From the NCBI RefSeq assembly GCF_017348835.2, contig NZ_CP072315.1: a DNA stretch of 64,000 bases; one strand, given 5' to 3'. The translations under genes and the position numbers were made by a program. Source of the stretch: Escherichia coli (lineage in GTDB: Bacteria > Pseudomonadota > Gammaproteobacteria > Enterobacterales > Enterobacteriaceae). Each line of letters starts with the position of its first letter. Positions within the stretch are counted from its first letter, which is position 1. The notes under the pieces were generated by a model, which saw only the letters and a list, made by a program, of their open reading frames with translations, was not told the origin of the DNA and did no database searches. Positions 14,928 to 16,393 of this stretch are shown in pieces.

Positions 14928-15227
14928 CGGGCACTGGCTGGCAATGTCTAGCAACGGCAGGCATTTCGGCTGAGGGTAAAAGAACTTTCCGCTAAGCGAT
15001 AGACTGTATGTAAACACAGTATTGCAAGGACGCGGAACATGCCTCATGTGGCGGCCAGGACGGCCAGCCGGGATCGGGATACTGGTCGTTACCAGAGCCA
15101 CCGACCCGAGCAAACCCTTCTCTATCAGATCGTTGACGAGTATTACCCGGCATTCGCTGCGCTTATGGCAGAGCAGGGAAAGGAATTGCCGGGCTATGTG
15201 CAACGGGAATTTGAAGAATTTCTCCAA
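14921..15227 (+). mobile_element. truncated ISCR2 (5' end and first about 63 codons of the transposase)
   Basis: 307 bp identical to 10624-10930 of the complete ISCR2 copy; identity ends after ...gaagaatttctccaa. Confidence 0.85.
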
Positions 15228-16393
15228 AGCCCGCGACGCAGCGCCGGCAGGCAGAGCAAGTAGAGGGCAGCGCCTGCAATCCATGCCCACCCGTTCCACG
15301 TTGTTATAGAAGCCGCATAGATCGCCGTGAAGAGGAGGGGTCCGACGATCGAGGTCAGGCTGGTGAGCGCCGCCAGTGAGCCTTGCAGCTGCCCCTGACG
15401 TTCCTCATCCACCTGCCTGGACAACATTGCTTGCAGCGCCGGCATTCCGATGCCACCCGAAGCAAGCAGGACCATGATCGGGAACGCCATCCATCCCCGT
15501 GTCGCGAAGGCAAGCAGGATGTAGCCTGTGCCGTCGGCAATCATTCCGAGCATGAGTGCCCGCCTTTCGCCGAGCCGGGCGGCTACAGGGCCGGTGATCA
15601 TTGCCTGGGCGAGTGAATGCAGAATGCCAAATGCGGCAAGCGAAATGCCGATCGTGGTCGCGTCCCAGTGAAAGCGATCCTCGCCGAAAATGACCCAAAG
15701 CGCGGCCGGCACCTGTCCGACAAGTTGCATGATGAAGAAGACCGCCATCAGGGCGGCGACGACGGTCATGCCCCGGGCCCACCGGAACGAAGCGAGCGGG
15801 TTGAGAGCCTCCCGGCGTAACGGCCGGCGTTCGCCTTTGTGCGACTCCGGCAAAAGGAAACAGCCCGTCAGGAAATTGAGGCCGTTCAAGGCTGCCGCGG
15901 CGAAGAACGGAGCGTGGGGGGAGAAACCGCCCATCAGCCCACCGAGCACAGGTCCCGCGACCATCCCGAACCCGAAACAGGCGCTCATGAAGCCGAAGTG
16001 CCGCGCGCGCTCATCGCCATCAGTGATATCGGCAATATAAGCGCCGGCTACCGCCCCAGTCGCCCCGGTGATGCCGGCCACGATCCGCCCGATATAGAGA
16101 ACCCAAAGGAAAGGCGTCGTCGCCATGATGGCGTAGTCGACAGCAGCGCCGGCCAGCGAGACGAGCAAGACCGGCCGCCGCCCGAAACGATCCGACAGCG
16201 CGCCCAGCACAGGTGCGCAGGCAAATTGCATCAACGCATACAGCGCCAGCAGAATGCCATAGTGGGCGGTGACGTCGTTCGAGTGAACCAGATCGCGCAG
16301 GAGGCCCGGCAGCACCGGCATAATCAGGCCGATGCCGACAGCGTCGAGCGCGACAGTGCTCAGAATTACGATCAGGGGTCTGTTGGGTTTCAC
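15194..16393 (-). CDS. tet(A): tetracycline efflux MFS transporter Tet(A), with its last about 9 codons supplied by the ISCR2 fragment
   Basis: GTG start at 16393 (VKPNRPLIVILSTVALDAVGIGLIMPVLPGLLRD...); C-terminus reads ...ALRRGLWRNSSNSRCT, the tail being encoded by the reverse complement of ISCR2 sequence. Confidence 0.9.
   Translation of the reverse strand: MKPNRPLIVILSTVALDAVGIGLIMPVLPGLLRDLVHSNDVTAHYGILLALYALMQFACAPVLGALSDRFGRRPVLLVSLAGAAVDYAIMATTPFLWVLYIGRIVAGITGATGAVAGAYIADITDGDERARHFGFMSACFGFGMVAGPVLGGLMGGFSPHAPFFAAAALNGLNFLTGCFLLPESHKGERRPLRREALNPLASFRWARGMTVVAALMAVFFIMQLVGQVPAALWVIFGEDRFHWDATTIGISLAAFGILHSLAQAMITGPVAARLGERRALMLGMIADGTGYILLAFATRGWMAFPIMVLLASGGIGMPALQAMLSRQVDEERQGQLQGSLAALTSLTSIVGPLLFTAIYAASITTWNGWAWIAGAALYLLCLPALRRGLWRNSSNSRCT

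Follow-up and report, generated by a model that had tools for sequence, protein, structure and literature searches.

The window, a 64,000-nucleotide stretch of an Escherichia coli assembly (GCF_017348835.2, contig NZ_CP072315.1), belongs to an IncHI2 plasmid and is essentially colinear with the Salmonella plasmid p2016062-242 (NZ_CP090540.1). Within it lies a multiresistance module whose features are collected in Table 1. The module begins with IS26, a resolvase gene and a hypothetical gene, continues through intact ISCR2, a DUF3363/virD2-like gene, floR, a truncated lysR and a truncated ISCR2 (delta-ISCR2), and then passes through tet(A), tetR(A), a Tn1721 remnant, strB, strA and sul2 to an IncQ repC fragment. 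For the floR part, the literature gives the layout ISCR2-virD2-floR-lysR-(delta)ISCR2. A floR-tetA-strAB-sul2 module was described in 2011 on the IncC plasmid pAR060302. The sul2 (ARI-B) region of this IncA/C plasmid has the same order, ISCR2-DUF3363-floR-lysR-tet(A)-tetR-strB-strA-sul2, and an identical 41-bp sequence at the junction of ISCR2 and tet(A). Its module, however, sits in an IncC backbone, whereas that of the window, flanked by IS26 and the IncQ repC fragment, is carried by an IncHI2 plasmid.

Table 1. Features of the ISCR2-tet(A) region, with positions in the window.
Feature	Positions	Strand	Description
Intact ISCR2 (ISVsa3)	10637..12248	+	From the terIS-side boundary through the 497-aa transposase gene (10755-12248); reference copy for the remnant
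floR segment	12279..14927	+	Between the two ISCR2 5' ends; ORF list and annotation
DUF3363/virD2-like ORF	12279..13163	+	Part of the floR segment
floR	13380..14594	+	Part of the floR segment
Truncated lysR	14622..14927	+	Part of the floR segment
Truncated ISCR2 (delta-ISCR2)	14921..15227	+	terIS-side end with 63 transposase codons; no catalytic region, no oriIS
225-bp remnant ORF ('hp225' of PMC12888893)	15039..15263	+	63 ISCR2 codons, then 11 codons antisense through tet(A); ORF list
tet(A) coding sequence	15194..16393	-	Translation, NCBIfam tet_MFS_A and exact TetA-2.2 match
ISCR2-only part of the tet(A) frame	15194..15221	-	Stop, codons 399-392 and third base of codon 391
6-bp microhomology	15222..15227	.	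CTCCAA on the plus strand, TTGGAG on the tet(A) strand; crossover inside
Tn1721-derived fragment	15222..17623	-	2402 bp, 99.8%; tet(A) without its last 9 codons, operator/promoter, tetR(A), Tn1721 remnant
tetR(A) repressor gene	16499..17149	+	Divergent from tet(A); ORF list and annotation
strB (aph(6)-Id), strA (aph(3'')-Ib), sul2	17729..20244	-	Complete the floR-tet(A)-strAB-sul2 module

Translation of the minus strand from 15194 to 16393 yielded the tet(A) frame, 399 codons running from a GTG start at 16393 to a TAG stop at 15194-15196, with the C-terminus ...GLWRNSSNSRCT / ...CLPALRRGLWRNSSNSRCT*. A 424-aa ORF that starts from an ATG at 16468 was rejected as an over-extension upstream into the tetR/tet(A) operator region, not the true tet(A) start; this over-extended form is present in some database records. 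The 399-aa protein scored 891.5 bits with the NCBIfam model tet_MFS_A (NF012193; cutoff 840), which assigns it to class A, and the runner-up class was Tet(C), with 726.7 bits against its own cutoff of 850. Members of one tet class share at least about 80% amino-acid identity. By this measure too the window protein belongs to class A, since 389 of its 399 residues, with the GTG start counted as Met, are shared with the Tn1721-type protein; the differing positions are A93T and residues 391-399. The divergent tetR(A) and the intervening operator/promoter region likewise agree with class A. The window copy of tetR(A) encodes a G182D change relative to the common WP_000164043.1.

We also scanned positions 14600-16600 for promoters and terminators. 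Promoter-like sites on both strands clustered divergently at 16444-16496, in the tetR/tet(A) intergenic region. Besides these tet promoters the scan returned two terminator-like sites, both inside tet(A); within the same interval no promoter was found in delta-ISCR2 and no terminator after tet(A).

The sequence that runs into the 3' end of tet(A) was compared with the intact ISCR2 upstream. On the plus strand, 14921-15227 is identical to 10637-10943 at 307 of 307 positions, and the match breaks off sharply at 15227. The shared stretch consists of 118 bp of upstream sequence and the first 189 bp of the transposase gene of the intact ISCR2/ISVsa3, a perfect match that cannot have arisen by chance. 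A record matching positions 9000-21000 at 100% identity lists the intact copy as 'IS91-like element ISVsa3 family transposase'. The remnant is therefore ISCR2 by sequence, including the terIS-side end. ISCR2 (ISVsa3) is an IS91-like rolling-circle element with a transposase of 497 codons, whereas the remnant retains 63 of these and has no oriIS, and so lacks both the complete transposase and the oriIS that belong to autonomous rolling-circle transposition. The NCBIfam model ISCR_clade_Ia matched only residues 11-63 of the 74-aa remnant ORF (profile positions 19-71 of 509), at 45 bits versus a cutoff of 925. Where the same arrangement occurs elsewhere, PGAP annotates a pseudogene, 'IS91 family transposase, incomplete, missing C-terminus', overlapping the tet(A) that encodes WP_000804063.1. 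Delta-ISCR2 is an inert remnant and is not to be counted as a functional element.

The other side of the junction was compared with Tn1721-type tet(A), for which public plasmid records encoding WP_000804064.1 (Clade I TetA-1.1) served as reference. Some Tn1721-type records show tet(A) as two RGI predictions, and unsplit records provide the clean reference. By blastn against CP031283, homology of the Tn1721 type extends from 15222 to 17623 (2402 bp, 99.8% identity). The identity of 99.8% at the nucleotide level holds over tetR, the operators and tet(A) codons 1-390, and the arrangement of tetR(A) and the length of the protein are also the same. The Tn1721-type Tet(A) likewise has 399 aa and ends in ...GLWSGAGQRADR*, but its last nine residues are unlike those of the window allele, which additionally carries A93T. 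Downstream of tet(A), the Tn1721 type has a DMT/EamA (pecM type) gene, a cysteine hydrolase gene and a truncated TnAs1/Tn1721 transposase. In the window, delta-ISCR2 takes the place of this neighbourhood, and both the pecM-type gene and the transposase remnant are absent. Of a complete Tn1721, with its terminal inverted repeats, tnpA, tnpR and tet module, the window holds only the 2402-bp internal fragment, in which the remnant of the transposon is a short, annotated 243-bp 'transposase' ORF.

A three-way alignment located the crossover in a 6-bp overlap of ISCR2 and the Tn1721-type tet(A), at 15222-15227. At a junction formed at random, microhomology of at least 6 bp has a chance of about 0.0013. 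From this point on, the tet(A) strand is the reverse complement of ISCR2: codons 391-399 and the stop correspond to nt 156-189 of the transposase gene, and the ISCR2-only part of the frame is antisense to transposase codons 52-61. Codon 391 changes from AGC (Ser) to AGA (Arg), codons 392-399 are replaced, and the TAG supplied by ISCR2 falls at the same distance as the native TGA. The tail thus changes from SGAGQRADR* to RNSSNSRCT* with the length still 399 aa. The breakpoint lies at nt 189, inside the transposase ORF, and coincides neither with the terIS-side boundary (14921 in the remnant, 10637 in the intact copy) nor with oriIS. An earlier note on this DNA, made from the sequence alone, had proposed that a truncated ISCR2 provides the 3' end of tet(A) through the antisense strand of its 5' transposase region at 15194-15238. 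The 307/307 identity and the three-way alignment bear this out, and the coordinates are correct. The two C-termini and the equal length of 399 aa given there also agree with the translation of the window and with the Tn1721-type reference.

How the pump accommodates the new tail was considered from the position of the change. By hydropathy and sequence, the final hydrophobic segment is GWAWIAGAALYLLCLPAL (roughly residues 368-385); an RR follows it, and residues 391-399 come after both. TetA-family pumps have an established topology of 12 transmembrane segments, with a cytoplasmic C-terminal tail. The replaced residues would accordingly be read as a short, non-conserved cytoplasmic tail after TM12. 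No TetA structure has been solved, and NorA is the nearest relative by sequence. The NCBIfam core model for the family as a whole stops at residue 384, and the models for individual Tet classes are between 383 and 411 positions long, which indicates that the tail varies in both length and sequence. It is because residues 391-399 lie in this variable tail, past the last hydrophobic segment, that the pump would tolerate their replacement. The identical length, which the earlier note had offered as a possible reason for tolerance, is probably a coincidence and not the cause; the end of the core model and the spread of class model lengths speak against that idea. That the chimeric pump stays functional can be deduced from the accessible text of the literature (PMC12888893).

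We then examined whether the chimeric gene is already recorded. AMRFinderPlus calls in PLSDB reach 100% identity over all 399 codons for the RNSSNSRCT allele and equally for the SGAGQRADR allele, so both tails are reference alleles. The window allele, which combines A93T with the C-terminal RNSSNSRCT, scored 99.75% (398/399) because of A93T. In RefSeq the RNSSNSRCT form with A93 is named 'tetracycline efflux MFS transporter Tet(A)' (WP_000804063.1). The earlier note had implied that the altered C-terminus is out of the ordinary, unless reference tet(A) sequences should already end in ...WRNSSNSRCT. Such references exist, and its reading of the locus therefore stands for the anatomy of the junction, but neither for the unusualness of the tail nor for the role given to equal length.

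The same protein has also been studied experimentally. Fan et al. (Antimicrob Agents Chemother 2025; PMC12888893) defined "Clade II TetA" by the substitution of SGAGQRADR with RNSSNSRCT and linked it to IncC/repB(R1701) plasmids and floR. The window protein has this nine-residue C-terminal substitution and is identical to TetA-2.2 of that study at 399 of 399 residues. TetA-2.1 and TetA-2.2 of Clade II have the same downstream neighbours as the window gene, namely floR and the 225-bp ORF 'hp225'. TetA-2.2 shows no sequence difference from the window protein. The authors ascribed the tail substitution to this overlapping 225-bp hypothetical gene and not to ISCR2. According to the text of the paper, tetA-2.1 and tetA-2.2 were cloned with tetR on a low-copy vector and MICs were determined in K. 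pneumoniae and E. coli; variants 2.5, 2.7, 2.8 and 6.1 are given there as non-functional, and variants 1.6, 1.8, 1.10 and 2.6 as having raised tigecycline or eravacycline MICs. From the absence of both from these lists in the text, we deduce that TetA-2.1 and TetA-2.2 are ordinary tetracycline-resistance pumps. An MIC measurement of the cloned gene, which the earlier note had suggested, is thus already published for tetA-2.1 and tetA-2.2.

The term ISCR2 occurs zero times in PMC12888893. We found no open-access text that ties ISCR2 explicitly to the C-terminus of Tet(A), and among open-access texts either tail string was found only in PMC12888893. Other papers place ISCR2 or delta-ISCR2 around floR without discussing the tet(A) reading frame. 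The chimeric tet(A) allele is already known, both catalogued and experimentally characterised. The present analysis adds one thing only: hp225 of PMC12888893 is what is left of the ISCR2 5' end, and a 6-bp microhomology marks its join to tet(A). The ISCR2 origin of the tail is a small clarification and has no bearing on open biological questions.

The frequency of the junction was estimated in public collections. A 261-bp query spanning it matched at least 1055 PLSDB plasmids at a coverage threshold of 80% or more, with about 100% identity, in hosts including Escherichia, Klebsiella, Salmonella, Shewanella and Plesiomonas among others. In complete E. coli genomes the junction was present in 617 records, corresponding to 574 of 5426 genomes, and an adjacent internal segment of tet(A) was present in 1874 of the 5426. 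The fused form thus accounts for about 31% of tet(A)-positive complete E. coli genomes (574 vs 1874). A tblastn search with the reference C-terminus returned 4385 tet(A)-type plasmid records, and in 3456 of them the reference tail was included. At least 1000 contigs encode exactly this 399-aa protein, which is named "MULTISPECIES: tetracycline efflux MFS transporter Tet(A)". The allele is thus an ordinary one: the same chimeric gene is catalogued, has already been tested and is carried by roughly one in three tet(A)-positive E. coli genomes. At the finest scale, the exact 41-bp junction was found in all five of the loci of this context that were compared (5/5), on four plasmids: the IncC plasmids pAR060302 and pSHE-CTX-M, the IncHI2 plasmid p2016062-242, and pL73-2. 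With one and the same breakpoint in every one of these contexts, the junction would go back to a single ancestral event and have spread with the module.

We consider it very probable that the window gene is the widespread chimeric tet(A), 'Clade II TetA', of the floR-tet(A)-strAB-sul2 module, and that it descends from a single ancestral illegitimate recombination or deletion. A Tn1721-derived tetR-tet(A) fragment would have been joined at codons 390/391 to nt 189 of the ISCR2 transposase gene, the two reading in convergent orientation. The alignment fixes the position of the crossover, and the presence of microhomology suggests that the joining was an illegitimate recombination or deletion associated with it. 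The rest of ISCR2, the native 3' end of tet(A) and the downstream pecM-type DMT/EamA gene would have been lost in the same event, and likewise, we infer, the cysteine hydrolase gene and the truncated TnAs1/Tn1721 transposase. The antisense frame of ISCR2 would by chance have offered nine sense codons followed by TAG, leaving the length unchanged. No intermediate with a full ISCR2 beside a complete Tn1721 tet(A)-pecM region was found, and for this reason it is a matter of inference whether the joining was a deletion or an inter-molecular recombination, and whether ISCR2 was truncated before tet(A) arrived. From there the module would have carried the junction, in unaltered form, into chromosomes and onto plasmids of the IncC, IncHI2, IncF and other types.

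Another origin to be weighed is that the junction was produced by rolling-circle transposition of ISCR2, with tet(A) captured by read-through and the boundary being a transposition terminus. As an IS91-like element ISCR2 is known to mobilise adjacent genes, floR and sul2 being classically associated with it. The breakpoint, however, falls inside the transposase ORF at nt 189 and not at terIS (14921/10637) or oriIS, the remnant is without oriIS and the catalytic domain, and a 6-bp microhomology is typical of illegitimate recombination, all of which makes this origin very unlikely. We give practically no weight to an artefact of assembly or sequencing at a repeated ISCR2, or to a tail formed by frameshift or point mutations within tet(A). 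The window does contain two ISCR2 5' ends, a type of repeat able to mislead assemblers, but the identical junction recurs in 617 E. coli replicons and in over 1000 complete plasmids that were sequenced independently. It is also present in records where only one ISCR2 5' end exists, pSHE-CTX-M being an example. The 307/307 identity to ISCR2 excludes a tail that arose by divergence of tet(A) itself.

A further question is whether the tail contributed to the success of the allele. Selection of the tail for an altered substrate range, stability or expression, as opposed to its hitch-hiking with the multiresistance module, appears rather unlikely. Being present in about 31% of tet(A)-positive complete E. 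coli genomes, the allele has indeed done very well, but its being linked to floR, strAB and sul2, on IncC, IncHI2 and IncF plasmids that are themselves epidemic, explains this success fully. The residues RNSSNSRCT lie outside the conserved core, and the ancestral alleles 2.1 and 2.2 are not among the variants with raised tigecycline or eravacycline MICs listed in PMC12888893. An adaptive effect is favoured by the finding that TetA-2.6 (G300E with RNSSNSRCT) exceeds TetA-1.8 (G300E with the reference tail) in minocycline and tigecycline resistance (PMC12888893), a comparison which hints that the tail is perhaps not strictly neutral. Similarly doubtful is the idea that the tail changes TetA stability, membrane insertion or substrate range, or that transcription from the ISCR2 remnant yields an antisense RNA on the 3' end of tet(A). 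Were either the case, the junction itself would be a determinant of phenotype for about a third of tet(A) genes.

The significance of the microhomology junction and its tail is mainly one of bookkeeping. Up to residue 390 the two reference forms of Tet(A) are the same, and their last nine residues tell the genetic context: SGAGQRADR stands for the Tn1721 context with a pecM-type gene downstream, and RNSSNSRCT for the ISCR2/floR-strAB-sul2 module. Because it marks the context in this way, the tail can be used as a lineage marker for tracking the module.

The truncated ISCR2 also bears on the history of the floR unit. Its 307 bp and the 5' end of the intact ISCR2, 4284 bp upstream, form a direct repeat without a single mismatch. 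The IncC plasmid pSHE-CTX-M shows the order resolvase-hypothetical gene-ISCR2 (307 bp)-tet(A) without the ISCR2-floR unit. Judged from the two arrangements, the forms in the window and in pSHE-CTX-M differ by exactly one homologous-recombination event across the 307-bp repeat. By such recombination the 4284-bp ISCR2-floR unit may have been gained, through integration of a circular ISCR2-floR molecule, or lost, through deletion.

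The altered C-terminal tail of Clade II TetA has been attributed to a 225-bp hypothetical gene, 'hp225' (PMC12888893). Inspection of this stretch revealed that hp225 (15039-15263, plus strand) is what is left of the 5' end of the ISCR2 transposase gene, its frame running on through antisense tet(A). No mention of ISCR2 is found anywhere in PMC12888893.

Besides the tail change, the tet(A) gene of the window carries an A93T substitution (GCG to ACG at codon 93, window position 16117), and the allele scored 99.75% in AMRFinderPlus. On the basis of A93T, the window allele is therefore TetA-2.2, and not the AMRFinderPlus 100% allele. 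An ATG at 16468, upstream of tet(A), opens a 424-aa extended 'Tet(A)' ORF (added stretch 16394-16468), and this 424-aa annotation (public protein record P0002) is present on 75 contigs in public data. Since this ATG sits inside the tetR/tet(A) promoter-operator region, the longer ORF is probably an over-extended gene call. In some PLSDB records, as seen for the public plasmid loci L001 (CP031283, a Tn1721-type reference) and L006 (NZ_CP041997), the Tn1721-type tet(A) was cut into two RGI/CARD predictions of about 99% and 97% identity. The CARD tet(A) reference is an RP1-type sequence that differs by a compensated frameshift around residues 201-203, which could be the reason for the split predictions. 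The neighbouring repressor gene also differs from the common form, with G182D in TetR(A) (codon 182, window position 17043) relative to WP_000164043.1; in the matching Salmonella plasmid, p2016062-242, this G182D form is annotated as WP_001493764.1.

The IncC plasmid pSHE-CTX-M (L002) shares with the window the delta-ISCR2::tet(A) junction and the upstream resolvase-hypothetical protein context, but is devoid of the ISCR2-DUF3363-floR-lysR unit. Gain or loss of this unit therefore proceeds by recombination across the 307-bp repeat (see the table). The floR gene itself (13380-14594) showed 99.75% identity to the AMRFinderPlus reference, corresponding to one changed residue, whereas floR of the IncC plasmid pAR060302 was 100% identical. 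On the other side of the module, the position of repC places the sul2-strA-strB part in an RSF1010-like context. In L002 and another IncC plasmid, L009, homology to the window ends at 20546, just short of repC.

Features of the window and their coordinates
Feature	Coordinates	Strand	Remark
IS26, six copies	approximately 4270-4992, 8232-8954, 22159-22881, 27393-28115, 32748-33470, 36735-37457		
ISCR2 5'-end direct repeat	10637-10943 and 14921-15227		307 bp, perfect
ISCR2-DUF3363-floR-lysR unit	10637-14920		4284 bp, bounded by the 307-bp repeat
IncQ-type repC	20552-21502	-	immediately upstream of sul2
Class 1 integron	within 1-37500		intI1, aac(6')-Ib-cr5, arr-3, dfrA27, aadA16
IS6100, mphR-mrx-mph(A), aac(3)-IId, blaCTX-M-55	within 1-37500		
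IncHI2 backbone	from ~38000 onward		umuDC and transfer genes

All of window positions 1-37500 form a dense multiresistance region bounded by IS26. A PAS-domain methyl-accepting chemotaxis gene on the minus strand adjoins IS26, and roughly 7 kb separates this gene from the tetR-tet(A) fragment. It is listed as a 730-aa ORF at 6585-8777 and annotated in the matching Salmonella record at 6585-8162 only. Since orfI, a gene of this type, belongs to Tn1721, the chemotaxis gene may be a second, separated piece of that transposon.
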